A stretch of DNA of 32,000 bases from Demequinaceae bacterium (GCA_965250005.1 OZ252279.1:90001-122000); one strand, 5' to 3'; positions 1 through 13,543 are shown, numbered from the stretch's first letter. Notes: generated from the sequence alone by a model not told the origin. Translations and numbers: made by a program.

Positions 1-2340
1 AACGGGTCGCTCGTCACTCAGCCCGCCCCGCCCCCGCGCGCCGGTTACGCGTTCGACGGCTGGTTCGACGCCTCGAGCGGCGGCTCGGCCTGGGACTTCG
101 GATCCGACACCCTCACCGGCAACGTGACTCTCTACGCGCAGTGGTCCGCTATTCCGTACACACTGGCCTTTGACAGCCAGGGCGGCACACCGGTGACCGC
201 ACAGACGGTGCCGTACGACACGCTCGCCACCGAACCCACCGACCCCACGCGTGGCGGCTACACGTTCGACGGCTGGTACACGCTCAGCTCCGGCGGCGTC
301 GTGTGGGACTTCACGACCGACACCGTGGTCGCGGACGCCACCGTTTACGCGCAATGGACGCCTGTGGACTACACGCTCACGTACGACAGCCAAGGCGGCG
401 ACGCCGTGTCGAGTGAAACCGTCGCGTACGGCGCGCTCGCGACCGAGCCCGTTGACCCGACGCGCACGGGCTATACCTTCGACGGCTGGTCCACCGCCGT
501 ATCCGGCGGAAGCGCGTGGAACTTCGCGACGAACACCATGACGGGTGACCGCACCCTCTACGCCGCGTGGACGCCCGCGTCCTACACCGTCACCTTCGAC
601 ACCCAGGGCGGCAGTAGCGTCCCGGACGAGACCGTCGACTACAACGAGTTCGCGACCGAGCCGAGCGCGCCGACCCGCACAGGTTACGCGTTCGACGGCT
701 GGTTCGACTCCGCCTCCGGTGGGACCGCGTGGGACTTCGACGCGACCACGATCACCGATGACACGACCATCTACGCGCAGTGGACCATCTTGACCAACGT
801 CGTGTCGTTCGATAGCCAGGGCGGCGGTACGGTGCCGAACCAAACCATCGACTACGACGACACTGCCACCGAGCCGACCGAGCCCACCAAGTCCGGCTAC
901 ACCTTCGAAGGCTGGTTCAGCGCTCCGACCGCCGGTACCGAGTGGGACTTCACCACCGACACCGTGGTGACCAGCCTCACGCTGTACGGCCAGTGGACCA
1001 TCGTCACGTACACCGTCAGCTACGACAGCCAAGGTGGTTCCGCCGTGGCGAGCGAGTCCGTCAACTACGGTGGCCTCGCCACCGAGCCCACCGACCCGAC
1101 GCGCACCGGCTACACGTTCGATGACTGGTATTCGGCGTCGTCGGGCGGCTTCGTGTGGGACTTCACCAGCAACACCATCACCGCCGACAAAACGCTCTAC
1201 GCCGCGTGGACCCCGATCGATTACTCCGTCACGTTCGACACGCAGGGCGGCACGGTGGTGTCCGGCCAGACCGTCAGTTACAACACCTTCGCGGCGACGC
1301 CGGCGACACCCACCCGCACCGGCTACACATTCGACGGCTGGTTCGACGCGGCGTCCGGAGGGTCCGAATGGGACTTTGGCACCGACGCGATCACCGATGA
1401 CACCACGATCTACGCGCAGTGGACGATCATCACTAACCCCGTGACGTTCGACAGCCAGGGCGGCAGCGGCGTGTCGAGCCAAACCATCGACTACGACGGC
1501 CTCGTAGTAGAGCCTGTCGACCCGACGTTCACCGGCTTCACGTTTGACGGCTGGTTCGACGCGGCGTCCGGCGGCACCGCATGGGACTTTGGCGCCGACA
1601 CCGTCACGAGCCCGGAAACCTTGTACGCGCAGTGGACAGCGATCACGTACAACGTGACGTACGACAGCCAGGGCGGCTCGGCTGTCAGTTCCGAGACCGT
1701 CGGGTACAACGCACTCGTCACCGAGCCCGCCGACCCGACGCTCACCGGCTACACGTTCGACGGCTGGTTTGACGCTTCGTCGGCCGGGGCGCCGTGGGAC
1801 TTCCCATCCGACTCCGTGCTCGCGGACACGACCCTGTACGCGCAGTGGACAGCAATCGACTACACCGTGTCGTACTCGAGCCAGGGCGGTTCCGCCGTCG
1901 CGAGCGAGACCGTCGCGTTCAACGGCATGGCGACCGAGCCGTCCGACCCGACTCGACCCGGCTACACATTTCTGGGCTGGTTCGACTCGGCGTCCGGTGG
2001 ATCGGTGTGGGACTTCACGGGCACGTCCGTGTCGGGCGACATGACGTTGTACGCCCACTGGAGCGCGATCGACTACACCGTCACGTTCGATAGCCAGGGC
2101 GGAAGCGCGGAGGCGGCCCAGACCGTCAACTACGACGACCTCGTTGCCGAGCCCTCCGACGCCACGCTTTCCGGGTACACATTCCTCGGCTGGTTCGACG
2201 CGGCGTCCGGTGGCACGCTGTGGGACTTCGCGGCGGACGGGGTCACCGGCGACGTTACGCTCTACGCGCACTGGGCGCTGCTCGTCAACGTATCCTTCGT
2301 CAACGGCGCTGACACCATTCCGTCGCAGCTCGTGATCGTG
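1..2340 (+). repeat. In-frame tandem array with a 213-bp (71-aa) unit, about 11 copies, and a 639-bp three-unit super-period over units 2-8
   Basis: The F/Y codon of the xFDSQGG motif falls at 169, 382, 595, 808, 1021, 1234, 1447, 1660, 1873 and 2086, which is exactly 213 nt apart. The next one is at 2296 (210 nt). Units 2, 5 and 8 resemble each other (Y.V.YDSQGG..V.SE.V.Y..LATEP.DPTRTGYTFD ... TLYAAWTP). So do units 3 and 6 (TFDTQGG ... ITDDTTIYAQWTI) and units 4 and 7 (TN.V.FDSQGG). Confidence 0.9.
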
Positions 2341-2625
2341 GGCGGCTATGCCGTCCCGCCGTCGACGCCCGTGCGGGACGGATACACCTTCTTGGGATGG
2401 TTCACCGATCCGACCGGGGGCGACGAGTGGGACTTCGCCGTCGATCCCGCCACCGGCGACATCGTGTTGCACGCCCACTGGGAGCGGGACACGCTAGCGG
2501 CCACGGGTGCGCCCGTCGACCGCCAGGTCACGTGGGCGCTTGGATTGCTGCTCGGGGGATTCCTCCTGCTGATGCTTGGCCGCTGGCGCCGCACGCGGCT
2601 CCTGGGCATGAACGACCCCGCCTAG
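1..2625 (+). CDS. Cell-wall-anchored surface protein made of Listeria-Bacteroides type repeats (InlB B-repeat / Flg_new-like); 5' end lies outside the window
   Basis: Frame 1 is open from nt 1 (NGSLVTQPAPPPRAGYAFDGWFDASSGGSAWDF...) and continues into the listed ORF 124..2625. The motif Y-T-x-x-F-D-S-Q-G-G ... T-E-P-x-x-P-T-R-x-G-Y-T-F-D-G-W-F ... W-D-F ... T-L-Y-A-Q-W recurs about 11 times. The protein ends with an LAATG sorting signal. Confidence 0.9.
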   Translation, partial: NGSLVTQPAPPPRAGYAFDGWFDASSGGSAWDFGSDTLTGNVTLYAQWSAIPYTLAFDSQGGTPVTAQTVPYDTLATEPTDPTRGGYTFDGWYTLSSGGVVWDFTTDTVVADATVYAQWTPVDYTLTYDSQGGDAVSSETVAYGALATEPVDPTRTGYTFDGWSTAVSGGSAWNFATNTMTGDRTLYAAWTPASYTVTFDTQGGSSVPDETVDYNEFATEPSAPTRTGYAFDGWFDSASGGTAWDFDATTITDDTTIYAQWTILTNVVSFDSQGGGTVPNQTIDYDDTATEPTEPTKSGYTFEGWFSAPTAGTEWDFTTDTVVTSLTLYGQWTIVTYTVSYDSQGGSAVASESVNYGGLATEPTDPTRTGYTFDDWYSASSGGFVWDFTSNTITADKTLYAAWTPIDYSVTFDTQGGTVVSGQTVSYNTFAATPATPTRTGYTFDGWFDAASGGSEWDFGTDAITDDTTIYAQWTIITNPVTFDSQGGSGVSSQTIDYDGLVVEPVDPTFTGFTFDGWFDAASGGTAWDFGADTVTSPETLYAQWTAITYNVTYDSQGGSAVSSETVGYNALVTEPADPTLTGYTFDGWFDASSAGAPWDFPSDSVLADTTLYAQWTAIDYTVSYSSQGGSAVASETVAFNGMATEPSDPTRPGYTFLGWFDSASGGSVWDFTGTSVSGDMTLYAHWSAIDYTVTFDSQGGSAEAAQTVNYDDLVAEPSDATLSGYTFLGWFDAASGGTLWDFAADGVTGDVTLYAHWALLVNVSFVNGADTIPSQLVIVGGYAVPPSTPVRDGYTFLGWFTDPTGGDEWDFAVDPATGDIVLHAHWERDTLAATGAPVDRQVTWALGLLLGGFLLLMLGRWRRTRLLGMNDPA
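2494..2625 (+). other. C-terminal sortase sorting signal: LAATG (LAxTG, class E sortase type), hydrophobic span, basic tail
   Basis: cta gcg gcc acg ggt at 2494-2508 encodes LAATG. It is followed by APVDRQVTWALGLLLGGFLLLMLG and then RWRRTR, close to the stop codon. Confidence 0.75.
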
Positions 2626-2973: not shown

Positions 2974-3312
2974 TTACCGCGGCAAGTTGGGGCCGGGCGC
3001 GTACATCTCGCGCCAGCCTTCGGGCAGCCCGCTTTGCGTGTGCTGGGGGATCCACCCGACCAGCGCCAGTTTGAAGCCGTGCGCCATCGCGGCGCCACCG
3101 CCGCGGCCCGCCGCCTGAGCGACCGAAACGCCGAGGACCCACATCGCTCCCGCCGCGACGGCAATGGTGGCGACGAAGAACGCAGGCATCGCGTCCCTGG
3201 CGCCTTGCGTGATCAGCACGCCCATCCCGCCGATGGCGAGCACGAACCAGCCGAGCGCGATGACAACGTACGTGCGCTGCGCGGCCTTGGACCAGGTCTT
3301 GAAACGGATCAT
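2974..3312 (-). CDS. Small membrane protein (112 aa, two hydrophobic spans), family not recognised; paralog copy 1
   Basis: ATG-started ORF with high GC3 and hydrophobic segments VVIALGWFVLAIGGMGVLI and AFFVATIAVAAGAMWVLGV. A second copy at 8686-8985 matches at about 80 of 99 aligned residues by hand alignment. Confidence 0.7.
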   Translation of the reverse strand: MIRFKTWSKAAQRTYVVIALGWFVLAIGGMGVLITQGARDAMPAFFVATIAVAAGAMWVLGVSVAQAAGRGGGAAMAHGFKLALVGWIPQHTQSGLPEGWREMYAPGPNLPR

Positions 3313-3348
3313 GTGTTCAGGTTCTCACGCGGAGTGCGGTCTGTGCCG
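2974..3348 (-). repeat. Direct repeat copy 1 (small membrane-protein gene plus 36-nt upstream leader)
   Basis: Collinear with 8686-9060 from the stop codon through 36 nt upstream of the start position. The leader matches at 28 of 36 nt by hand count. Similarity stops at both ends. Confidence 0.8.
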
Positions 3349-3469
3349 CGCTATTGGGAACCGGCAGTCCGATCCCCACGTGTCCGTGACTCCCAGTCCT
3401 CGACCCAGTCCGCCGGATAGTTCGGTACTGAGTGTTCGCCGCGCATCGGCTGCCTGCCGAACGAAGGTG

Positions 3470-3485
3470 GAGACCTCGAGGTCTC
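3470..3485. promoter_or_regulatory. Perfect 16-bp palindrome GAGACCTCGAGGTCTC in a divergent intergenic region; candidate operator or hairpin
   Basis: Read directly from the sequence; the string equals its own reverse complement. Flanking bases extend it imperfectly (gtGG...tCac). It lies between the divergent starts at 3312 (-) and 3616 (+). Confidence 0.35.
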
Positions 3486-3580
3486 TCACGAACTGCGCCC
3501 TGTCCCGGTTACGGGCGGCCCGAAGGCTGCGCGGCCTAGCCACGCCCAAGCGCCTTCGCGTGGAGCCTGCCTCCGGGCGC

Positions 3581-3609
3581 TTGACGGGGGCACTCGTTCA
3601 CACTAGGTT
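3581..3609 (+). promoter_or_regulatory. Candidate sigma-70-type promoter giving a leaderless transcript for the 3616 gene
   Basis: TTGACG at 3581-3586, a 17-nt spacer, then TAGGTT at 3604-3609. The GTG start at 3616 is 6 nt after the -10 element and has no Shine-Dalgarno sequence. Confidence 0.35.
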
Positions 3610-3615
3610 CGCCAC

Positions 3616-4386
3616 GTGACAACGCCGACTACACCGAGCGCCGAGGCGCCACTGCCCGGAACCCCTCCCGTGCACGGCACTAAGCCGTCACATGGTTACG
3701 GGGAACTCCTCGGGTCGATGCCCGCGCCCGTCGAGGTGAAGAGGCGCAACGCCACTAGCATCGTGCGGTGGATGTCCGGCGGCATCGTGCTCCTCGTGGT
3801 ACTTCTGATTGCTGGCGCGGTGTTCCTTTTCAAGTCGAGCTTCTCTGACGAATCTCCGAACTATGCGGACGAGCCCGTGTCCGCACAGGTTGCGCCCGCT
3901 GTTGGCTGGGTGCAGGTCACCGATTCTCAGTCCCGCCTCGCCTTCGACGTGCCCGCCCACTGGCGCGACGCGACCGAGGTAGTGCCGGGATCCGATGCAC
4001 TGATTGATTCCTCTCCAGACGTGGAGCAGGTGCGCGCGTGGCTCGCCGGTGACGGCGTCAGCGAGCCACTGATGCTGGTCTCGGTTTTTGCCAGCACCGA
4101 CCCGGTGCCTCTTCCAGGCAAAATCCACGCAGAATCCTTCCTGCTCGGGGTCGAGGCAACCGCAGGTCCCCTGACCGTTGAAGATTCCGCGGCGATCACT
4201 ACGTCAAACGGGCTGGTGGGTCATTGGATCACCTATCGAATCTCGGTATCGGGGGATGACGCGGACGGCGCGGTAGTGGCATTGACCCACGGAACAACCG
4301 CGTTCATTCTCTCGGTAACTGCCTACGAGTCGGACGTGGACCCCGAACTCATCAACGAGATAGTCGAGACTGTTCGCATCGACTAG
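3616..4386 (+). CDS. Single-pass membrane protein with a ~180-aa extracytoplasmic domain, family not recognised (cassette gene A)
   Basis: 256-aa ORF. It has a Pro/Thr-rich N-terminus, then KRRNATSIVRW, one hydrophobic span GGIVLLVVLLIAGAVFLF, and a soluble C-terminal domain. GC3 is somewhat lower than in flanking genes. Confidence 0.7.
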   Translation: MTTPTTPSAEAPLPGTPPVHGTKPSHGYGELLGSMPAPVEVKRRNATSIVRWMSGGIVLLVVLLIAGAVFLFKSSFSDESPNYADEPVSAQVAPAVGWVQVTDSQSRLAFDVPAHWRDATEVVPGSDALIDSSPDVEQVRAWLAGDGVSEPLMLVSVFASTDPVPLPGKIHAESFLLGVEATAGPLTVEDSAAITTSNGLVGHWITYRISVSGDDADGAVVALTHGTTAFILSVTAYESDVDPELINEIVETVRID

Positions 4387-4590
4387 ATTGCGCAACTCAC
4401 GCGCGAACGAGGGCGTTGTGGCACGCTATTGCCCGAGCACCCGTCTGGCGATTGGGTCCTCTCACAGCCGCAAGCGCCCACCCCGTGCAGATCCAGGGCG
4501 ATCACCCGCGCTCGCGCAGATCTGAAGGTTTGTGTACTTTGACCCGATGTTGCAATCGCAAGTTGTCGGAAGCGAAGGAGCTCACTGGAC

Positions 4591-5841
4591 ATGAATTCGA
4601 GTCGCGTCAAAGAGTTCACAGTTTCACTCGGCACCGTCACCGCGACTGCCGCGTTCGTTACCCTCATCGTGTTTGCCGCACTCGCATTCAATCACGTCGA
4701 ACTCGGGGTCAACTTGGCGGTGTCCGGGCTCTTGTTGGGCATGTTGATCCCCGTCGGACTTGAGGTTCGATCCCGATCATCGCGGCCGCGTCGAATACTA
4801 TTCCTGGACTTCCGGCGCCATCAATACGGTCAAGGTGTTGCTTCCGGCGCCCTGCGGGTCCTTCATGCGGACAAGCGCCAGTGGCTTGTCGATGTAAAAC
4901 AGCCTGAGGCGGCTGATGGCAAAGGATCTGTGCAATGGCAAATCCGGGAAATCGAATTGGCCATCATTGACAACATCGATGGCGTGATCATCATCCCGGC
5001 GGAAGACAGCGACGAACTCTGGCACGCTCTCGCGACGCTCGTTAAATCCAACGCGATGGTGATTGCGCTTGACAGCAAGCCCCCAAATGCCGTTTATCGC
5101 CGTGTCGGTCTTGACCCGCCGCGCTTTGTCTCGGCACGTTACGAAAAAACTGGCACCCTGATCGGTAACTGGCTCGCCGATTGGATGCTCGAGGATCCTG
5201 AGAGGACCTGCATTCTGTGGATCGGACCCGAGGGCAGTTGGGCTGGAGAAGAGCGGAGCCGCCAGATTATCTACTGCCTCGTGAAGGCTGGCGTCCAGGA
5301 CCGGATGAGGCTGCAGCCAATCAACAACTGGATGCCGACTCCCGAACGGTGCAATGAAACCCTCGACGTCATTGAGGCATCGGACGGACAAGTGGCGATC
5401 TATTGTGCTGACGACGAGAACGCGCTCGCTCTCCACCTGATGACCCTGACCGACCGGACGCCGCTCCGCTCCCAAATGCGCATTGTCGGATGCAACGCGA
5501 CTCCAGACGACTGGGGAAACATCCCAGCCGTAGACATGCACGCTGTCGACGTGACTGTCGATATTCTCGCTCAAGAGCAGGGCGCGGAGGCGGCACGGCT
5601 GCTCGTGCTTGAACGGTACGGAAAGTTGTCATCCACGCAACGGAGCGTCTACATTGCCCCGCACATCCTGGTTCCGGGGGCACGGGAAGTCCGCTGGCTG
5701 GACCGGATCTTTGACGGTCACGATGTTGAGATCGCTACTCCTGCTCCTCCTACGCCAGGGGAGGCCCCCAGCGAGCCAAGCATTCCGGTGGTCACCACTC
5801 GCCACAACACCAAGAAGCGCGACAAAGGGACTCCCTCGTAG
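4591..5841 (+). CDS. Membrane-tethered periplasmic-binding-protein type I (LacI/ribose-binding-like) ligand-binding domain protein without an HTH (cassette gene B)
   Basis: GAAGGAG lies 7-8 nt before the ATG. Two N-terminal hydrophobic spans are followed by RSRSSRPRR. PBP1-like blocks are present: DGVIIIPAEDSDELWHALATLVKSNAMVIALD, VSARYEKTGTLIGNWLADWM, CILWIGPEG, VAIYCADDENALALHLMTL and MRIVGCNATPDD. Many A/T-ending codons (aaa, caa, gaa, att, gat) contrast with neighbouring genes. Confidence 0.75.
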   Translation: MNSSRVKEFTVSLGTVTATAAFVTLIVFAALAFNHVELGVNLAVSGLLLGMLIPVGLEVRSRSSRPRRILFLDFRRHQYGQGVASGALRVLHADKRQWLVDVKQPEAADGKGSVQWQIREIELAIIDNIDGVIIIPAEDSDELWHALATLVKSNAMVIALDSKPPNAVYRRVGLDPPRFVSARYEKTGTLIGNWLADWMLEDPERTCILWIGPEGSWAGEERSRQIIYCLVKAGVQDRMRLQPINNWMPTPERCNETLDVIEASDGQVAIYCADDENALALHLMTLTDRTPLRSQMRIVGCNATPDDWGNIPAVDMHAVDVTVDILAQEQGAEAARLLVLERYGKLSSTQRSVYIAPHILVPGAREVRWLDRIFDGHDVEIATPAPPTPGEAPSEPSIPVVTTRHNTKKRDKGTPS

Positions 5842-6082
5842 CGATTGCCAGAGGCGCTCGAAATCCGGTAATAATGGGGGCGAGATCAGCAATGATGCGG
5901 CAGAGGCATTCTTGGCAATGCTTCGCCAGGTCACGGATGTCGCCGATGGGGCCGCCGTATCCGCCGCGAACATGATCCCCGTGGCCCCGGCGGCGAAGAT
6001 GTAGGTTCAATCGAGACCCGCAACCCTCGCAAACCTCTCGTTCCGGTCGCGGATTGACCGGATCAGGGCTACATTTCGGCCT

Positions 6083-8689
6083 ATGGTGTTCCTTGAAGAC
6101 AAGAGCCCGGTGCAGGTGCCACCTGACACGATCGAACTACGTGTCCACGGGGTGTCCGGGACGCCCCCGGACACCATGCTCAAGTCCCCGGTGGTGCGGG
6201 TCTCCGGGGATGAGGACTCCGGCTTCTATCGCAAGCCCGGAGAGACGAACGCCACGGGCGTGTCCGAGGCGTACAGCTGGAGCGGGCTCACCAGCGGCGC
6301 CCGGATCACCGCGTACTGGCTGCTGCTCTTACCGTTCTCGCTCATCAACGTAGCCGGCTGGGCCATTCCCACGCAGCCCGTCGAGGGCGGCAGAGTCAAG
6401 GGCGAGAAGGACGGCACGGCACGCTCGCGCCGCACCAAGAAGCGCTGGATCAAAGTGCGCGGCGCCATCAACCGCGTGCTCGCGTTGCTGCTCTCGGCCG
6501 TGGTCGCCGCAGGGCTGTTCCACCTGTCATTCCTTGTCTTTGGGCCCAGTGATACGTACCCAGGGGGGCTGCTGTCGTGGGGCGTGCGCCTGGACCTGCT
6601 CGTGATGCTGGTTGCCGCGAGCGCAATCCCGTTCGTGCTGTCGCGTTTGGGGCTGTGGTCGGGCCGGGCCACACGCACGCGGCGCACGCCGCGGTACCCC
6701 CCCTCCCGGCCTGCCGCCAAACCCGGGAAGCAGCCCGGCCTGTTCGCCCGCTTCTTCCACTTTGAAGAGCTCGATCTCGAGATGGACGTGACGGCGCACC
6801 CGTCCATCCAGCCAAGCAAGGATGTCAAGGGCCTGGCCGATCGCCAAGAGAAGGCCCGCAAGAAGGGCGCCGCATACGACGAGGAGGCGGACAGCGCCGC
6901 CCACGCTTGGCGGCGCTGGGACAGCCAAGTGTTCATCCGCAAACTCGCATTCGTGCACCGGATCATGGTGCTGTCGATCGTGGTGCTCTGCTACGGCGCG
7001 GTGCTGCTTGGCACTGCCGAGTCGGCATCAGGGCACGACGCTCTCGTCGCCCCCGCGCGCGTGCTCATTGCTTTGTCCGCGATCACGGTCGTCCTTTGCA
7101 TCGTCACCGTGGTGGCGATGGACCAGGCGAACGGGGGGCCCCTGCGGTGGCTCGTGTTTGCCACCGTGAACCTTGGCCGCATCGCGTGGGCCGGCGCCGT
7201 TGTTGTGACATTCACCGCGGAGCTACCCGACGCGATGGGGTCCGACAACCCCGTGACCACCACGGGCATCTGGTTACTTGCGGCTACCGCAATCCTGCTG
7301 ATCTCCCTGTGGGCCCTCGACTTTGCCCTGTGCACCGACACCCACCTGCGCACGTCGCGCTTCTACTCAGCGGCGCTCTCGTCCGCCGCGTTCTTTGTGG
7401 TGATCCCCCCGTATGCGCTCGCGATCCTCGCGATCGATCGGTTGTTGATCGACGGCGTCGAGGTCGGGTGGATCAGCATCGCCGTCCCCGCGTCCACGGC
7501 GCTGTTCCTGCTCATTGCCATGCGCTTCCTCTGGGTTGCGGACTTTGTTGGCCGCAAGCGTGTCCGCCCGCGCGCGGCGAAGGCCGATCCGTACTCGCGT
7601 GAGGATGCCGCGTACCTGACACAGAAGCATCGGCGCGTCGGCACCCGCGAGGGGGTGGACACCGCTGGCGACACGATTCGCGGTGCAGTCCCAGCGTGGC
7701 TGCTCGTAGCGCTGGTGGCGGCGATCGTGAATGCGGCCGGCAGCGTGCTCGGGTTTGAGTCTGCTCTCGGAGAGCCCGCCGTCGGCATGGCCCTGGTCGT
7801 TGCGCTGTCTGCGGCGCTGGTGGGCGTGGCACTGCTCGACGACCGGCAGCGAGTAGCGGGCTTGACGGCGCTCGCAATCCTGGGTGGGACGTCGGCCGCG
7901 TTGTACTTGTTAGAGCCGAAGTGGGCCGCGTGGTTTATCGACGCGCTGGAGCGGACGGCCGATTGGCTGGTGGTCGCTGTCATTTGGGGGTCGGTCGCTG
8001 TGCCGGGCCTGGGGATCCTGTGGTTCCTGCTTCGTGGGTCCAAAGAGCGCGACGCACGCAAGGGCGTGGGGCTGCTGTGGGACGTTGTGAACTTCTGGCC
8101 GCGCTTCTACCACCCGTGGGCGCCCCCCGCATATGCCCACCGCGCCGCCGAGGACCTGGTTGCGCGCATCGAGACGCTCGTGGACAGCAGCCCCAAGTCC
8201 GGCAAGGCGCACAAGCTCAAGGTGGTCGTTAGCGCCCACAGCCAGGGCGCGACTGTCGTGTTTCCCGCGCTTGCGACGCTCGCTGTGGTGCGCCCGGACC
8301 TGCGCGACAACGTCAGACTGCTCACGTACGGGTGCATGCTCGAGACCCTTTACGAACGCATCACGCCCGCATTCTTTGGCCCCGCGGGGATCAGGGGCAT
8401 GGACCGGCGGCTCGAGCACCGGTGGATACACCTGTACCGCCGCACCGACTGGTTGGGGCAGCCCATCTGCACTCTAGGCGATCGCAACATCGAGGTGCCG
8501 TCGTACGAGGAGGTCACGGAGGACGAGGCCCTGTCACACGAGAATTACCAGTACAGCGACCGCTACCAGGTCGCGCTTATCGAGCTGGCGAAGCGGGGCA
8601 AGACGTCGATGCCCGCGAAGTACCGTGGGCCACAGTCCGACCCACGCGACCCTGACGAGGACCTCGCGCCCGCATGCTCGCCCGACTAG
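6083..8689 (+). CDS. Large polytopic membrane protein with lipase-like alpha/beta-hydrolase motifs at the N- and C-termini (cassette gene C)
   Basis: 868-aa ORF with high GC3. LRVHGVSGTPP lies at 6143-6160. I count about 13 hydrophobic segments by eye. The C-terminal soluble domain has VVVSAHSQGATVV (AHSQG at 8234-8248), YRRTDWLG (Asp codon 8447-8449) and LSHENY (His codon 8537-8539). Confidence 0.85.
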   Translation: MVFLEDKSPVQVPPDTIELRVHGVSGTPPDTMLKSPVVRVSGDEDSGFYRKPGETNATGVSEAYSWSGLTSGARITAYWLLLLPFSLINVAGWAIPTQPVEGGRVKGEKDGTARSRRTKKRWIKVRGAINRVLALLLSAVVAAGLFHLSFLVFGPSDTYPGGLLSWGVRLDLLVMLVAASAIPFVLSRLGLWSGRATRTRRTPRYPPSRPAAKPGKQPGLFARFFHFEELDLEMDVTAHPSIQPSKDVKGLADRQEKARKKGAAYDEEADSAAHAWRRWDSQVFIRKLAFVHRIMVLSIVVLCYGAVLLGTAESASGHDALVAPARVLIALSAITVVLCIVTVVAMDQANGGPLRWLVFATVNLGRIAWAGAVVVTFTAELPDAMGSDNPVTTTGIWLLAATAILLISLWALDFALCTDTHLRTSRFYSAALSSAAFFVVIPPYALAILAIDRLLIDGVEVGWISIAVPASTALFLLIAMRFLWVADFVGRKRVRPRAAKADPYSREDAAYLTQKHRRVGTREGVDTAGDTIRGAVPAWLLVALVAAIVNAAGSVLGFESALGEPAVGMALVVALSAALVGVALLDDRQRVAGLTALAILGGTSAALYLLEPKWAAWFIDALERTADWLVVAVIWGSVAVPGLGILWFLLRGSKERDARKGVGLLWDVVNFWPRFYHPWAPPAYAHRAAEDLVARIETLVDSSPKSGKAHKLKVVVSAHSQGATVVFPALATLAVVRPDLRDNVRLLTYGCMLETLYERITPAFFGPAGIRGMDRRLEHRWIHLYRRTDWLGQPICTLGDRNIEVPSYEEVTEDEALSHENYQYSDRYQVALIELAKRGKTSMPAKYRGPQSDPRDPDEDLAPACSPD

Positions 8690-8985
8690 TTCGGCAGGTC
8701 GGGGTGAGGCGCGTACAACTCGCGCCAGCCTCTTGGCAGGCCGCTCTGTAGGTGCTTGGGGATCCACCCGATCAGCGTTAGCTTGAAGCCGTGCGCCATG
8801 GCCGCACTGCCGCCCCGGCCGGCCCCCTGAGCCACTGAGACGCCGAGGATCCACATCGCCCCCGCTGCCACCAAGATCGAGGCGACGAAGAACGCGGGCA
8901 TCGCGTCCCGGGCGCCTTGCGCCACCAGAACGCCGAGCCCGCCGATGGCGAGCACGAACCAGCCGAGCGCGATGACTACGCACAT
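8686..8985 (-). CDS. Small membrane protein, paralog copy 2; the ancestral start position carries ATA, so the start may be internal
   Basis: 99-aa ORF from the ATG at 8985, about 81% identical to copy 1. The frame stays open upstream to a TGA at 9037-9039. It encodes ITRLETWSKTAQR, collinear with MIRFKTWSKAAQR of copy 1, but ATA at 9024-9022 replaces ATG. Confidence 0.6.
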   Translation of the reverse strand: MCVVIALGWFVLAIGGLGVLVAQGARDAMPAFFVASILVAAGAMWILGVSVAQGAGRGGSAAMAHGFKLTLIGWIPKHLQSGLPRGWRELYAPHPDLPN

Positions 8986-9060
8986 GCGTTGCGCCGTCTT
9001 GGACCAGGTCTCTAAACGGGTTATGAGCTCAGGCTCTCATGTGTGGTGCGGTCCGTGCCG
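8686..9060 (-). repeat. Direct repeat copy 2 (small membrane-protein gene plus 36-nt leader)
   Basis: See copy 1. The similarity ends at 9060, 2 nt before the mazF stop codon at 9062-9064. Confidence 0.8.
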
Positions 9061-9061
9061 T

Positions 9062-9367
9062 TTACGAGACGTCCAGATCGAACGCCGCGAAGATGCCGCG
9101 CGCGAGTTCGCGCTCCTGGCTCGCGTCGAGGTAGCCGACCACCGGGCCGAGGGCGTCGCGCGCGATGGTGGCGACGTTGTCGAGCGAGATGACGGAGTCG
9201 TGGTCGAGCCCATTGCGTGCGCCTACCGGCACTTCCGTGGAGAGGCCGCGCACCGTGGATGTGATGGGAGCGACGGTGATGCGGGCGAGGAACGGGACTA
9301 CCTGGGCACGGGTGAGCACCACCACCGGGCGCGGCTTGTCGAGGCGGGCGGTGTGGATGGGGCGCAT
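9062..9367 (-). CDS. mazF: Type II toxin, MazF/PemK family endoribonuclease
   Basis: The 101-aa sequence MRPIHTARLDKPRPVVVLTR...ITVAPITSTVRGLSTEVPV...DSVISLDNVATIARDALGPVVGYL fits the MazF/PemK pattern, of the short-N-terminus type I recall from mycobacterial MazF proteins. Its start overlaps the upstream stop codon (TGATG). Confidence 0.85.
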   Translation of the reverse strand: MRPIHTARLDKPRPVVVLTRAQVVPFLARITVAPITSTVRGLSTEVPVGARNGLDHDSVISLDNVATIARDALGPVVGYLDASQERELARGIFAAFDLDVS

Positions 9368-9609
9368 CAGTCGAGGTTCCGCCAGCCGTCTTGGGCTGCC
9401 GAGGTGAACGCGGTGAGGTCCTCGGGCTCGGTTGTGCCGCTCGCGGCATGGTAGATCGCGGCGTCGGCGAGCGCGACTTGGTGGCGCCGCTCGCGCATGA
9501 GTGCTTGCGCGACAACGGCTGCTCGGCTGCGGGCGTCGCCGGCGGTAACCTGCGCATCGGCAAAAGCGACGAGTTCGTCAGGGATCCGGACGGTGATCTG
9601 AGTGGACAT
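9367..9609 (-). CDS. mazE: Ribbon-helix-helix antitoxin (MazE-like)
   Basis: MSTQITVRIPDELVAFADAQV...SRAAVVAQAL is a typical RHH N-terminus. I chose the ATG at 9609 rather than the ORF-track start at 9678. The gene is translationally coupled to mazF. Confidence 0.75.
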   Translation of the reverse strand: MSTQITVRIPDELVAFADAQVTAGDARSRAAVVAQALMRERRHQVALADAAIYHAASGTTEPEDLTAFTSAAQDGWRNLD

Positions 9610-9617
9610 GCCTTGAG

Positions 9618-9646
9618 CATACCGTGTAACATCCCAGATTGGTATG
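9618..9646 (-). promoter_or_regulatory. Inverted repeat CATACC-N17-GGTATG overlapping a TATGCT -10-like hexamer just upstream of mazE; candidate autoregulatory operator with a leaderless start
   Basis: On the minus strand the sequence reads ...GCCATACCAATCTGGGATGTTACACGGTATGCTCAAGGCATG. TATGCT ends 6 nt before the ATG, and the -35 region is poor. Confidence 0.3.
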
Positions 9647-10061
9647 GCACTCGCGGCGGAAGGAATAGCGGCGGTCATGGGACGACGCTACGGCGCGCTG
9701 GCGCCGCGCGGGCGCTATCCACAGGCCGAGTCGCGGCGCGCCGAACGCGGACCCTGCGCTCGGACCCGACGTCAGTTGTCATGCCGTCGACGTTAGCGTT
9801 CTAGTCGCGAGCGCGCGGGGTCTGGGACTGAATCGTGACTTGTCCGGAACTTGGAGGTGTCTTGCGGCTAGGCCTCGCGCGGATCCGGACCGTGCTTGTT
9901 CGCGCCCTTGCGGCTGGGCTTTGCTCGCGCGCGTCGGCGTGAATGCTCAGTGCAGCGGCGCTACACCCAGCGCACAGAAACGCGCCCCTCGCGCCGCGAC
10001 CCCAACGGGCGCTAGCCTGGGCGCATACGCAACCACCCCGTCGTCAACTGAGGAGATATCC

Positions 10062-11924
10062 ATGGACAAGCCCACCCTGCTGCAGCGCTGGCGCTACTGG
10101 TTCGACAACTTCATGGGTAGGGGAACGGGCGCGATGCTCGCGTTCCTGGGCGCCATCACCGTTGCGTTCATCCTGGTCAATACTGCGATCGTGAAAGTGC
10201 TCAACCAGGGTGAAGGCGGAGAGACGGAAACGTGGGCCGAGATCCTGTGGAACAACACCGTGAGCGTGCTGCGGTCCAAGGATGTGGTGGAGGGCACCCC
10301 GTGGGCGTTCCGGTTCGCGATGCTCGCGATCACCATCATCGGCGTGCTCATTGTGGCGAACCTGATCGGAATCATGGCGGGCGCGTTCAATGCGAAGGTC
10401 AAGGCCCTCAACCGCGGGCGGTCAGCCGTAATCGAGCGCAACCACACGGCAATCATCGGCTGGAACTCCAAGATAATCCAGATAGTGACCGCGCTGTGCG
10501 AGGCGAACGAGTCCAAGGGCAAGTCTGTGATCGTCATCATGGCCGACCGCGACAAGGTCGAGATGGACGAGGCGATTCGCGAGAAGATCGCCGACCCGGG
10601 CCGCACCAAGATTATTGTGCGCAGCGGCGACCCTCTCGACCAGGACGACCTGCTGCGTGTGCGGCCGTTCCGCGCCAAATCTGTGATCGTGCTCGCGTCG
10701 GAGGAGTACCCCGATAGCGACGCACGCGTCATCAAAATCGCACTCGCGTTGTCCCGCCATCCCGAGCGCCCCGCCACCGAGCTCAACCTGGTGGGTCAGA
10801 TCGCCAACCCCAAGAACCTCAAGGTTGCCCAGCTCGCCGGCCCCGACAAGGCCCAATGGCTACTGGGCACGGAGAAGATCGGCCAGATCACCGCTCAAAC
10901 CAGCCACCAGCCCGGATTGAGCGCCGTCTACTCTGAGTTGCTCAGCTTCAAGGGTTCCGAAATCTACTTCTCCCCGCAGCCCACGCTCGCGGGCGTCACG
11001 TACGCCGAGGCGCAGCTGAAGTATGCCGAAAGCACCGTGATCGGCGTCTCCACGGGTGGGGACGTGCACCTCAACCCGGCGCCCAACACGCAGCTTGGCG
11101 CAGACGTCAACCTCATCGTGATTGCCGAGGACGACTCCAAGATCGCTGTTACCGAGCCGGGACAGCCAGACCGGCGCGTGTACTCCAAGGCGAAGAAGAG
11201 CGCTCCCAGGGCGCACAAGACGCTGATTCTGGGAGCGAACCTGACGCTGCCGCACGTGCTCCGTGCACTGGACGCGTATTCCGCCAAGGGTTCCACGGTC
11301 ACCATCGTCTCCGAGTTCGACGTGCCGCCCGTGGGCAAATTCGCCAACGCGTCGGTGAAGATAGTTGAGGGAGACGCATCCGACCGCGACACACTTGACC
11401 AACTCAAGCCGGCTACGTACGATCACGTGATCGTGCTCGCCTACTCCGAAGACTTGCCGGTGCGGCAGGCAGACACCCGCACGCTCGTGACGCTACTGCA
11501 CCTGCGCGACATCATGGAAACCACCGGAAAGAACTTCAACGTGGTGAGCGAGATGTTGGACGAGAAGAACCGCCGCCTGGCCGAGGTCACTAAGGTCAAC
11601 GACTTCATCGTCTCGGACCACCTCGTCAGCCTGATGGTCGCACAGGTCTCCGAAAGCCCGCGTATGGCCGCGGTCTTCGCAGACCTCTTCTCTGCGCAGG
11701 GCAGCGAGATATACGTTCGACCGGCAGACTGGTACGTCAAGACCGGCAGCACGGTTGACTTCTACACGGTCACTGGTGCTGCGTCTGAGCGCAATGAAAC
11801 GGCCATCGGTTACATGATCGCCGCGCATGACGGTGGCGAGCCGATCATCGCGGTCAGCCCTTCGAACGCCGCGAACGTCACATTCGGCATGGACGACAGG
11901 ATTATTGTCCTCGCGGAGGGCTAG
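10062..11924 (+). CDS. CASTOR/POLLUX(DMI1)-related putative ion channel: two TM helices plus tandem RCK/TrkA-N domains
   Basis: AGGAG at 10051-10055 precedes the ATG at 10062. The in-frame extension back to 9840 has low GC3 and looks non-coding. RNHTAIIGWNSKIIQIVTAL resembles the CASTOR HILILGWSDKLG Rossmann start. A second RCK-like half begins at KTLILGANLTLPHVLRAL. Confidence 0.85.
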   Translation: MDKPTLLQRWRYWFDNFMGRGTGAMLAFLGAITVAFILVNTAIVKVLNQGEGGETETWAEILWNNTVSVLRSKDVVEGTPWAFRFAMLAITIIGVLIVANLIGIMAGAFNAKVKALNRGRSAVIERNHTAIIGWNSKIIQIVTALCEANESKGKSVIVIMADRDKVEMDEAIREKIADPGRTKIIVRSGDPLDQDDLLRVRPFRAKSVIVLASEEYPDSDARVIKIALALSRHPERPATELNLVGQIANPKNLKVAQLAGPDKAQWLLGTEKIGQITAQTSHQPGLSAVYSELLSFKGSEIYFSPQPTLAGVTYAEAQLKYAESTVIGVSTGGDVHLNPAPNTQLGADVNLIVIAEDDSKIAVTEPGQPDRRVYSKAKKSAPRAHKTLILGANLTLPHVLRALDAYSAKGSTVTIVSEFDVPPVGKFANASVKIVEGDASDRDTLDQLKPATYDHVIVLAYSEDLPVRQADTRTLVTLLHLRDIMETTGKNFNVVSEMLDEKNRRLAEVTKVNDFIVSDHLVSLMVAQVSESPRMAAVFADLFSAQGSEIYVRPADWYVKTGSTVDFYTVTGAASERNETAIGYMIAAHDGGEPIIAVSPSNAANVTFGMDDRIIVLAEG

Positions 11925-11974: not shown

Positions 11975-13543
11975 CTAAGTGCTCTGAGCCGGCGGAGGAG
12001 GAGGAGGTGGCGGAGGTGGCTGGACGGCCGGAGTGGGCTGCGTGACTGGCGGAGCTAACGGAAACGGACGGCTCCGCGTGACCGCCGGACTGGGGACCGC
12101 CGGACTGGGGACCGCCGGACTGGGGACCGCCGGAGTAGGGGCCTCTGCGGTGACAGGCGCGGGTAGGCCAGGAAATGGCGCAGCCGGGGCGGGAACTGCC
12201 GGAGTCTCGACCGGGGGTTCCGCGACCACGTCGCCTTCAGTATTGGAGCGGTGTGTACCCCCGCGACGCGGGGGTTTCTTGGCCCGCTGGGCGACCGGTG
12301 TGTCCTTGAACACGGGCTGCCAGAACGCCTCCGCGCCGGGACGAATTGAAGCCCCCTCGGGCTCGGCGAGCCCAAGCAAAGCGCGCGCGCTCCGCGAGTG
12401 GGGGTCGGCCTTGAACCAGCCGCGAGCCTTCGCCCACAGCATGCCAAAAACTAGCATCCCGATGAACGTGGTCGCGCCAACCGAAAGGAACACGGTGGGC
12501 GCCCCTGCAAACACCATTGCGGTCCACGAGGCGAGTCCCGCCACAAGGCCGACCGCGCCCGCAAACGCGTAGGCGGGCGCCCAGCGGCCTTCGCCGGGGG
12601 AGTGCACCCTTGCCAGCGAGTTGAGGATCAGGGCTGAGGCGATCACCGCTACGGTCACGGCGAGGATGACTGTGGTGCCGCTGGATGCATCTTCGTATGA
12701 GCGGGTGAGGCTCAGCGGCACGAGCAGAGCGAGGGCTGAGAATCCTAGGATCGCGCCTGGGATTCCAAAGACGTAGCGCCAGGGCTTGCGAGGATCGGGC
12801 CGGCGGCTCGATTCGCTGACGAGCACCATTGCGATCAACGCTGCGATTAGGCCAAGTACCACTGGAGCAGGCACGGCGAAGATCGCTGCCCGTGGCTGTA
12901 TCGTGTCCGATAGTTCGACCACAGCGATGTCTTCACAGCAGCTAGCCCCAAGGAAGCCTTCGCGGGTCCAAGCGCCCGCCTCCCTTCGCGTCGCGAATCC
13001 GTCGCGCCCGTTGGCGGCGACCACCGTGTATCCTTCCGCGTCGCCAATGACCGCGACGCCGCGGGTTGCAAGATCGGAGGGGATTCCCGTCAGGTGCGGC
13101 AGGGCGGCCTCGAGTTGGTCGCGCTGAGTGTCCGGGACCTCCCACTCGATCGTCCACGTCGCGCCGGCATCGTCGCTACGTTCCACCGCCAGGCGGTCGC
13201 GCACGGCACGGAAGCACGTGTTTGGGGCGCCGTCGACGCATTCCATGCGATGAAGGTTGGCGGTAGCCACCGTGGGAAGTCCCGCCTTGATGCCGTCCGA
13301 CCCAAGAACAAAGGACCATCGGCTCAAGTTACCGGAGCCGATCCAGCCCGCTGGGGCGAACCCGTCGTCGGCGAGTTGTCCGATGTAGAGAACGTTGTCT
13401 ACCGTCGCGGCGCCAAAAGCGCTTGGCTGATCAGGGGAGGTGCCCGCAGCGGTCAACAATACGGCGGCTGACGTGATTGCGGCCGTTTGCGCAGCCATCT
13501 TGCCCACGCGGCGCGCGTTGTCGCGCGCTTCCCTCAAATTCAT
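11975..13543 (-). CDS. Polytopic membrane protein with an N-terminal exported domain carrying one Asp-box (BNR-like) motif and a proline-rich C-terminal tail
   Basis: GGAGGA precedes the ATG at 13543. SDDAGATW matches the Asp-box pattern S-x-D-x-G-x-T-W. At least five hydrophobic spans follow. The tail reads ...PAVPSPAVPSPAVPSPAV...PPPPPPPPPP. Confidence 0.75.
   Translation of the reverse strand: MNLREARDNARRVGKMAAQTAAITSAAVLLTAAGTSPDQPSAFGAATVDNVLYIGQLADDGFAPAGWIGSGNLSRWSFVLGSDGIKAGLPTVATANLHRMECVDGAPNTCFRAVRDRLAVERSDDAGATWTIEWEVPDTQRDQLEAALPHLTGIPSDLATRGVAVIGDAEGYTVVAANGRDGFATRREAGAWTREGFLGASCCEDIAVVELSDTIQPRAAIFAVPAPVVLGLIAALIAMVLVSESSRRPDPRKPWRYVFGIPGAILGFSALALLVPLSLTRSYEDASSGTTVILAVTVAVIASALILNSLARVHSPGEGRWAPAYAFAGAVGLVAGLASWTAMVFAGAPTVFLSVGATTFIGMLVFGMLWAKARGWFKADPHSRSARALLGLAEPEGASIRPGAEAFWQPVFKDTPVAQRAKKPPRRGGTHRSNTEGDVVAEPPVETPAVPAPAAPFPGLPAPVTAEAPTPAVPSPAVPSPAVPSPAVTRSRPFPLAPPVTQPTPAVQPPPPPPPPPPAQST
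12081..12140. repeat. 15-bp tandem repeat accgccggactgggg, 3 perfect copies plus 1 imperfect, in frame (encodes PAVPS repeats on the minus strand)
   Basis: Units at 12081-12095, 12096-12110 and 12111-12125 are identical. The unit at 12126-12140 has 2 mismatches. Confidence 0.9.

Follow-up and report, generated by a model that had tools for sequence, protein, structure and literature searches.

Do three consecutive membrane-protein genes, lying between two diverged copies of a small gene in a Demequinaceae bacterium, form one functional unit? The stretch analysed here (GCA_965250005.1, OZ252279.1:90001-122000; hereafter the window, 32,000 nt, with positions counted from its first letter) contains three plus-strand genes, A, B and C, which are bracketed by two minus-strand direct repeats, each holding a gene for a small membrane protein (small_L and small_R), and a toxin-antitoxin module of the MazEF type adjoins the right repeat. 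An earlier reading of this DNA (the sequence-only reading) had taken the arrangement for an acquired cassette in which B acts as a sensor and C as a hydrolase. The comparisons described below favour another explanation, to which we give a probability of about 0.65: two diverged copies of an orphan small gene flank three functionally unlinked, separately expressed genes in a variable, lineage-specific part of an actinobacterial chromosome.

Three genes between two copies of a small gene

Co-occurrence was assessed in 85 loci carrying members of the C family (827 kb) and in eight loci carrying members of the B family, using tblastn (E <= 1e-3) and profile hidden Markov models of the four families searched against six-frame open reading frames (ORFs; E <= 1e-2). 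By both methods, A, B and the small gene were absent from all C-family loci (0/85), and A, C and the small gene from all B-family loci (0/8); MazEF was likewise not found near the C family (0/85 loci). Homologs of B and C thus never co-localised elsewhere in the loci examined, the outcome that had been fixed beforehand as speaking against a cassette, and the proposal of an acquired sensor-hydrolase pair is not supported. What that proposal had described of the layout itself was reproduced, namely three plus-strand genes between the repeats which all encode membrane proteins, with 1, 2 and ~13 spans by hydropathy for A, B and C, respectively. The genes are separated by intergenic gaps of 204 nt (A-B) and 241 nt (B-C), in which there are no convincing terminator or promoter calls, and a GAAGGAG ribosome-binding site precedes the ATG of B. 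The length of the gaps, together with B's own ribosome-binding site, would argue for separate expression of A, B and C.

Base composition divides the block further. A tract of low G+C content (GC, 0.55-0.62) at ~4100-6100 comprises B, the gaps on either side of it (both with GC 0.61) and the 3' part of A, and is surrounded by DNA with a GC of ~0.67. The GC content at third codon positions (GC3) is 0.68 in B, 0.73 in A, 0.85 in C and 0.88 in the small genes. Measured against nine core genes of the window, the codon usage of B is a strong outlier (Karlin B 0.365, z 6.8) and that of C exhibits a mild shift to higher GC3 (z 3.6), whereas A is no outlier (z 1.2), so that the foreign codon usage previously attributed to B and to part of A was borne out for B alone. 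Several ORFs at 24-30 kb have a GC3 equal to or below that of B, which is therefore not unique on GC3 alone. As A and B are low in GC and C is host-like, the DNA between the repeats is mosaic rather than a single import; this mixed composition and the 204- and 241-nt gaps speak against the idea of one acquired block.

A repeat search of the window identified 300 nt at 83% identity (2980-3279 versus 8692-8991), and in a gap-free comparison the minus-strand segments 2974-3348 and 8686-9060 are identical at 305 of 375 positions (81%). In a MAFFT alignment including 75-100 nt of additional flanking sequence, identity falls to background exactly at both limits, and the first 36 nt of the two copies match at 28/36 positions. 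The collinear direct repeats, their sharp ends and the resemblance of their leaders had thus been described accurately. Each copy consists of the small gene and its upstream leader, and tblastn found two copies only of this gene within the window. The left gene, small_L (2974-3312, minus strand; GC3 0.885), starts with ATG at 3312 and encodes an orphan protein of 112 aa. The right gene, small_R (8686-8985, minus strand), encodes a 99-aa copy that starts at 8985, 13 codons further in, and has ATA where small_L has ATG. Of the gene structure originally proposed, the two hydrophobic spans in each protein were confirmed by hydropathy, while a 36-nt leader on each gene was not, since the leader of small_R measures 75 nt. 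An in-frame TGA is located upstream at the same place in both copies, and the 13-codon extension of small_R is still open and partly conserved (WSKxAQR; 8985-9024 versus 3273-3312, minus strand). Either the first start codon of small_R is gone, or translation of this gene begins at a non-canonical codon.

The small proteins are 79% identical over 112 aligned positions, and in the annotated frame their genes show 18 differences at first, 8 at second and 29 at third codon positions. In this frame the ratio of nonsynonymous to synonymous divergence (dN/dS) is 0.26, with a synonymous divergence (dS) of ~0.5, compared to ratios of 1.1 and 2.9 when the two alternative frames are read, which indicates that both are real coding genes under purifying selection; the extent of the divergence points to an old duplication rather than a recent rearrangement. 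Among 5.8 billion protein clusters the small protein has no homolog except the two copies from this same 2.0-Mb contig, and a degenerate-pattern scan of metagenome contigs recovered no relatives. The arrangement resembles an ordinary segmental duplication with later insertion, in that collinear copies of a gene and its leader flank unrelated accessory genes and have diverged mainly at synonymous sites. It differs in that the duplicated gene is an orphan known from this contig alone, and its copies may be paralogs or xenologs.

The right repeat is wedged between the stop codons of C and of the MazF-like toxin gene, and the stop codons of small_R and C overlap in the palindrome CTAG (8686-8689). 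No MazF-like or C-like remnant adjoins the left copy beyond the repeat ends (MAFFT, tblastn). One stretch of 39 nt, GTCATCGCGCTCGGCTGGTTCGTGCTCGCCATCGGCGGG, is identical between the copies (3226-3264 and 8938-8976, minus strand), which are otherwise 19% diverged; it is the longest identical run and exceeds expectation (permutation p 0.015). A short gene-conversion tract could explain this identity, as could constraint acting on the first of the two spans. The leaders of the repeats scored no better than shuffled sequence for conserved RNA structure (z -0.6 and -1.0).

The families of genes B, C and A

Gene B (4591-5841, plus strand) encodes an N-terminal membrane hairpin, a type I binding domain and a disordered tail, as seen by hydropathy, AlphaFold2 and Foldseek. 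The two spans of the hairpin (residues 15-33 and 41-59) are followed by the lysine/arginine (K/R)-rich segment RSRSSRPRR, and by the positive-inside rule the binding domain should reside in the cytoplasm. In the AlphaFold2 model (pLDDT 84), residues 65-360 have the fold of ribose/allose/galactose-binding proteins, with 5dte as the best Foldseek match (E 3.7e-13, TM-score 0.84) and ~390 PDB matches at E <= 0.001. The PF13407 (Peripla_BP_4) model scores 31.9 bits on B, under its cutoff of 35.1, and is recorded in the database for many B homologs. B thus shares the fold of this region with the type I periplasmic binding proteins of PF13407. In contrast to the sugar-binding proteins of ABC transporters, however, it contains neither a signal peptide nor a lipobox, no ABC genes adjoin it in the window or in the eight other loci, and its N-terminus forms a two-helix membrane hairpin, which should keep the domain cytoplasmic. 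It also differs from LacI/GalR transcription factors in lacking a helix-turn-helix, since no Pfam or NCBIfam match to one was obtained and the N-terminus is occupied by the hairpin. B would presumably bind a small, sugar-like cytoplasmic ligand at the membrane, acting alone.

The B family is rare, yet its conservation is strong. It comprises 37 clusters, the top matches are 68-77% identical, and its invariant motifs include DxKPPN, GEERSR and DDENA. Across the eight loci its members occupy seven distinct settings, with neighbours that include IS110/ISL3 transposases and a broken heliorhodopsin gene (L002/L003), a CHAP-domain protein (L004), GH3 (L005/L006), CofH (L097) and rpsL, where B lies upstream (L098); in a further locus B is situated between DUF3515 and ddl (L099). 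The GC content of B was below that of the host locus in all five loci checked (L002-L006), and DNA similarity between B and its homologs stops inside the ORF. Taken together, the varied neighbourhoods, the low GC and the similarity ending inside the ORF are what would be expected of a single gene that moves horizontally. No relatives of B were identified by sequence in viral contigs, phage families or plasmids; among viral structures, the one match was a generic LacI/GalR-like sensor-domain fragment (E 4.9e-05, TM-score 0.68). A search for terminal repeats around B or the low-GC tract yielded chance-level matches only.

Three of the B loci are described here individually. At positions 1-12500 of L002 (ENA ERZ25039483 contig_6847), a ~11-kb stretch containing the B homolog and IS110 and ISL3 transposases is flanked by one intact heliorhodopsin gene and a fragmented second copy on the opposite strand; here too, B occupies rearranged DNA that has copies of a membrane-protein gene on its two sides. 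In L098 (8001-10014) a single B homolog stands in conserved core gene order directly upstream of rpsL-rpsG-fusA-tuf, and in L099 (5346-8415) a single homolog lies between DUF3515 and ddl, again in conserved core order. Mobile-element machinery is not visible around the homologs in these last two loci.

Gene C (6083-8689, plus strand) encodes an 868-aa polytopic membrane protein, analysed by family alignment, AlphaFold2 and hydropathy. Its family is actinobacterial and abundant, with 97 clusters of 700-990 aa, and in metagenomes at least 579 of 600 pattern matches were confirmed by tblastn. Members share conserved ends around a variable, polytopic core: ELRVHGVSGTPP and EAYSWGGLTSG at the N-terminus, and WDxxxFWPRxxHPxxPPxY plus an elbow-like A/G-H-S-Q-G motif at the C-terminus. 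In the protein from the window, the soluble segments, N-terminal (1-72) and C-terminal (~655-845), carry H22-G23, Ser720 (in A-H-S-Q-G), Asp789 and His819. In an alignment of 33 family sequences G23, D789 and H819 are invariant, and H22, H719 and S720 are kept in at least 90%. No match to C was obtained from Pfam, NCBIfam, PADLOC or PHROGs, nor any significant sequence match in the PDB.

In the AlphaFold2 model (pLDDT 71, pTM 0.77), four strands are located in residues 16-65 and four in 713-804; these could together constitute the canonical eight-stranded sheet of an alpha/beta-hydrolase, with the nucleophile after the fifth strand. C may be a split-domain protein, with four strands and the H-G motif at its N-terminus, Ser, Asp and His at its C-terminus, and ~12-14 transmembrane helices between them. 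With alpha/beta-hydrolases (PF01764, PF01083, PF05990, PF24322) it shares an H-G after the first strand, a small-x-Ser-x-small elbow, a conserved Asp and then His in canonical order, and the eight predicted strands. Family members give consistent but sub-threshold matches to the Lipase_3, Tle3, DUF900, Cutinase and Abhydrolase models, all at the elbow, where the family profile also touches cutinase, PAD4/EDS1 and feruloyl esterase below threshold; Foldseek places EDS1, thioesterases, lipase B and Tle4 at E 0.35-3. C differs from these enzymes in that ~580 residues of polytopic membrane helices would split the domain, no match reaches a curated or significance threshold, and the family has no Pfam or NCBIfam model. 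As modelled, C is a putative membrane-integral serine hydrolase or acyltransferase, possibly acting on a membrane or envelope lipid.

Hydropathy resolves 13 spans in C, with K/R-rich loops on one side. It would place the C-terminal segment in the cytoplasm, and the side of the N-terminal segment is ambiguous. The K/R-rich loops follow spans 1, 3 and 9, and the soluble ends fall on opposite sides, while model and motifs suggest one domain. Span 1 (residues 75-93), which contains a central proline and is modelled as two short helices, may be re-entrant.

The genomic contexts of C follow lineage. In the closest clade, C is found in the order aconitase-C-tRNA methyltransferase-amino-acid permease (L001, L013, L017), and in another clade in the order M20 peptidase-C-DUF4349 (L014, L015, L045, L085). 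Such lineage-conserved neighbours are the pattern of a stand-alone, vertically inherited gene. In the three loci of the closest clade, the C homologs invariably have aconitase on one side and, on the other, a TRAM/tRNA-U5 methyltransferase gene, after which come the amino-acid permease and trkA; since the C of the window stands outside the aconitase context, the genome may hold a second C at the canonical site. A search for a universal partner gene of C returned clade-level synteny only, and in the underlying clustering of neighbouring ORFs, spurious overlapping reading frames in DNA of high GC prevailed. No published work on the B or C family was found in a literature search.

Gene A (3616-4386, plus strand; ORF and hydropathy) encodes a single-pass membrane protein with a proline-rich N-terminus; the database gene call starts at ATG 3718 (222 aa). 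Its hydrophobic span (residues 54-72) has K/R residues on its N-terminal side and, on the other, an acidic domain of 184 residues, which is predicted to lie outside the cell (~185 aa). An exhaustive phmmer search of 1.84 billion representatives recovered 24 weak homologs, the closest at 37% identity, which have the same layout throughout and a conserved ...RID ending. Pfam has no match for A, and two of the homologs carry DUF2510 at their N-terminus. A is thus a member of a small, weakly conserved family of single-pass proteins.

The toxin-antitoxin module and the surrounding region

The right repeat ends at 9060 and the stop codon of the adjacent toxin gene occupies 9062-9064, in agreement with the 2-nt distance first reported for the MazEF module. 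The toxin (9062-9367, minus strand) belongs to the PemK/MazF family (PF02452, E 4.2e-11, 43.4 bits versus a cutoff of 23.1), and the antitoxin (9367-9678, minus strand) has a ribbon-helix-helix-like YlcI/YnfO N-terminal domain (NF041551, 34.7 bits versus a cutoff of 30), with weak matches to ParD-type ribbon-helix-helix proteins. The antitoxin gene lies upstream and overlaps the start of the toxin gene by 1 nt. At the DNA level the pair is ~69% identical to a Rhodococcus plasmid region annotated as PemK/MazF and YlcI/YnfO. Scores above the curated cutoffs, the antitoxin-first order, the 1-nt overlap and the size of ~100 aa per protein are all shared with known type II PemK/MazF modules that have YlcI/YnfO antitoxins; nothing is unusual here, and the sole tie to the repeats is the stop codon 2 nt away. 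Judged by these features, 9062-9678 has the gene content of a type II PemK/MazF module, with a predicted ribonuclease toxicity and a predicted neutralisation by the antitoxin.

The first 13.5 kb of the window look accessory, and ordinary metabolic genes follow from 13.7 kb on. To the left, a gene at 124-2625 (plus strand) encodes an 833-aa surface protein in which a domain scan identified 11 Listeria-Bacteroides (Flg_new) repeats, ~55% identical to each other; internalin models score strongly on it but below cutoff, and the gene is convergent to small_L across a 348-nt gap. To the right, 9840-11924 (plus strand; GC 0.626) encodes a Castor/Pollux-type RCK potassium channel (PF06241, Slo-like RCK, TrkA_N), whose best relatives among 185,579 species genomes are 39-41% identical and occur in Bacillota, Clostridia, Christensenella and Kofleriaceae metagenome-assembled genomes, not in actinobacteria. 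The channel gene was probably acquired horizontally. A scan of the genome collection anchored on it recovered neither this genome nor a near relative, and no synteny; the channel gene is a poor synteny anchor because it is itself accessory. Between the channel gene and a ROK kinase gene lies a 522-aa ORF (11975-13543, minus strand) with no Pfam, NCBIfam, PADLOC or PHROGs match, and the ROK kinase is the first core metabolic gene after it.

No integrase or transposase domain was detected in any ORF scanned in the 32-kb window, consistent with the lack of a recombinase reported at the outset, and the window contains no tRNA and no Rfam family. Neither B nor the block is bordered by any notable inverted or direct repeat, and the flanking repeats, as 81% identical coding genes with a dS of ~0.5, are not the near-identical ends of an element. 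Of nine proteins compared with PADLOC-DB v2, among them A, B, C, the small proteins and MazEF, none gave a match at E <= 0.1, and PHROGs returned a MazF-like toxin family and two marginal matches (E ~0.004-0.007) to families of unknown function. The view that no named defence, secretion or signalling system is present therefore holds for A, B, C and the small genes across PADLOC, PHROGs, Pfam and NCBIfam. A close plasmid match for the region was not found.

Competing explanations and meaning

The arrangement of the genes invites the reading that A, B and C are a new lineage-restricted module, in which B senses a cytoplasmic small molecule and regulates the hydrolase C, with A as an external partner and the small proteins as accessory or immunity-like factors. 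Consecutive membrane-protein genes on one strand, the ligand-binding fold of B, the conserved Ser-Asp-His pattern of C and the overlapping stop codons of small_R and C would all fit such a module. Yet no pair of its components co-occurs in the C or B loci by BLAST or profile models, both families clearly work alone elsewhere, the small gene is found nowhere else, and B and C differ in composition and are set apart by long gaps, so that we consider a module quite unlikely. Even less can be said for the view that MazEF and a membrane phospholipase-like C act together within a mobile element or anti-phage defence island, a very improbable explanation. It draws on the toxin-antitoxin module abutting the repeat and on weak matches of the C family to Lipase_3 and to the Tle3 phospholipase domain of type VI secretion systems. 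PADLOC, however, matched none of nine proteins and PHROGs only the MazF-like family and two marginal ones, B has no viral-contig relative, the 32 kb hold no integrase or transposase, the repeats are 19%-diverged coding genes rather than element ends, no notable terminal repeats surround B, and elsewhere C-family genes stand among housekeeping genes.

That one small-gene copy is xenologous, derived from a related lineage, and that the block was integrated by homologous recombination at the small gene, is unlikely. Collinear direct repeats with abrupt ends and a dS of ~0.5, which fits between-species divergence, are compatible with it, as are the foreign composition of B and neighbours that look accessory too (MazEF and the Castor-like channel, with best relatives at 41% in Bacillota). 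The 39-nt identical run (permutation p 0.015) is long enough for occasional RecA-type exchange, and loss or amplification of the 5.7-kb block through the direct repeats would still be feasible. Against this origin, both small genes have the same host-like GC3 (0.88), C as the largest gene of the block is host-like and belongs to a family with lineage-conserved gene order, no donor or small-gene relative was present in the collections searched, and recombinase, IS element and tRNA are absent from the window. The proposal also overlaps with the explanation that we prefer and differs from it only in the origin of the second copy.

In that preferred explanation, two orphan small-gene copies around three unlinked genes, an old duplication of the small gene, or the arrival of a xenologous second copy, would have come first; B, possibly together with A, would then have been inserted between the copies by horizontal transfer, and the MazEF module would have landed beside the right copy. 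The abrupt ends of the repeats may reflect the tight position of the right copy, with the 3' end of C on one side of it and the mobile-type MazEF on the other. Several points weigh against this account and the family readings attached to it. The shared strand of A, B and C and the membrane proteins encoded by all three are the reasons why a unit comes to mind at first, and a young, lineage-restricted functional association of the three may exist. The order of duplication, insertion of A and B and arrival of MazEF is itself inferred, and acquisition of A along with B is weakly based because A is no codon-usage outlier (z 1.2). As for C, the proposed hydrolase fold is without a significant structural match (best alpha/beta-hydrolase Foldseek E 0.35), and its odd span count (13) conflicts with both soluble halves lying on the same side. 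We therefore propose only tentatively, at somewhat less than even odds, that C represents a family new to description and spread across Actinomycetota, of membrane-integral serine hydrolases or acyltransferases with a split domain, and B a rare single-gene family, moving horizontally between actinobacteria, whose sugar-binding-protein fold is anchored at the cytoplasmic face of the membrane; these readings of the two families stand without the need of a real cassette.

For genome scans, the main value of this locus is negative: genes between repeats beside a toxin-antitoxin module can be ordinary genome patchwork, and as such the layout, itself of low interest, is not worth pursuing as a new defence or signalling system. 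Its components appear to be uncharacterised members of known superfamilies, and the proposed split architecture of C and the apparent lone-gene mobility of B are modestly of note in themselves. The C family, abundant, lacking a Pfam or NCBIfam model and with a putative split catalytic architecture that would be unusual, would be suited to a new family definition and to work on the biochemistry of actinobacterial envelope lipids, and the B family is a rare case of a binding-protein fold anchored inside the cell and seemingly moving as a lone gene.

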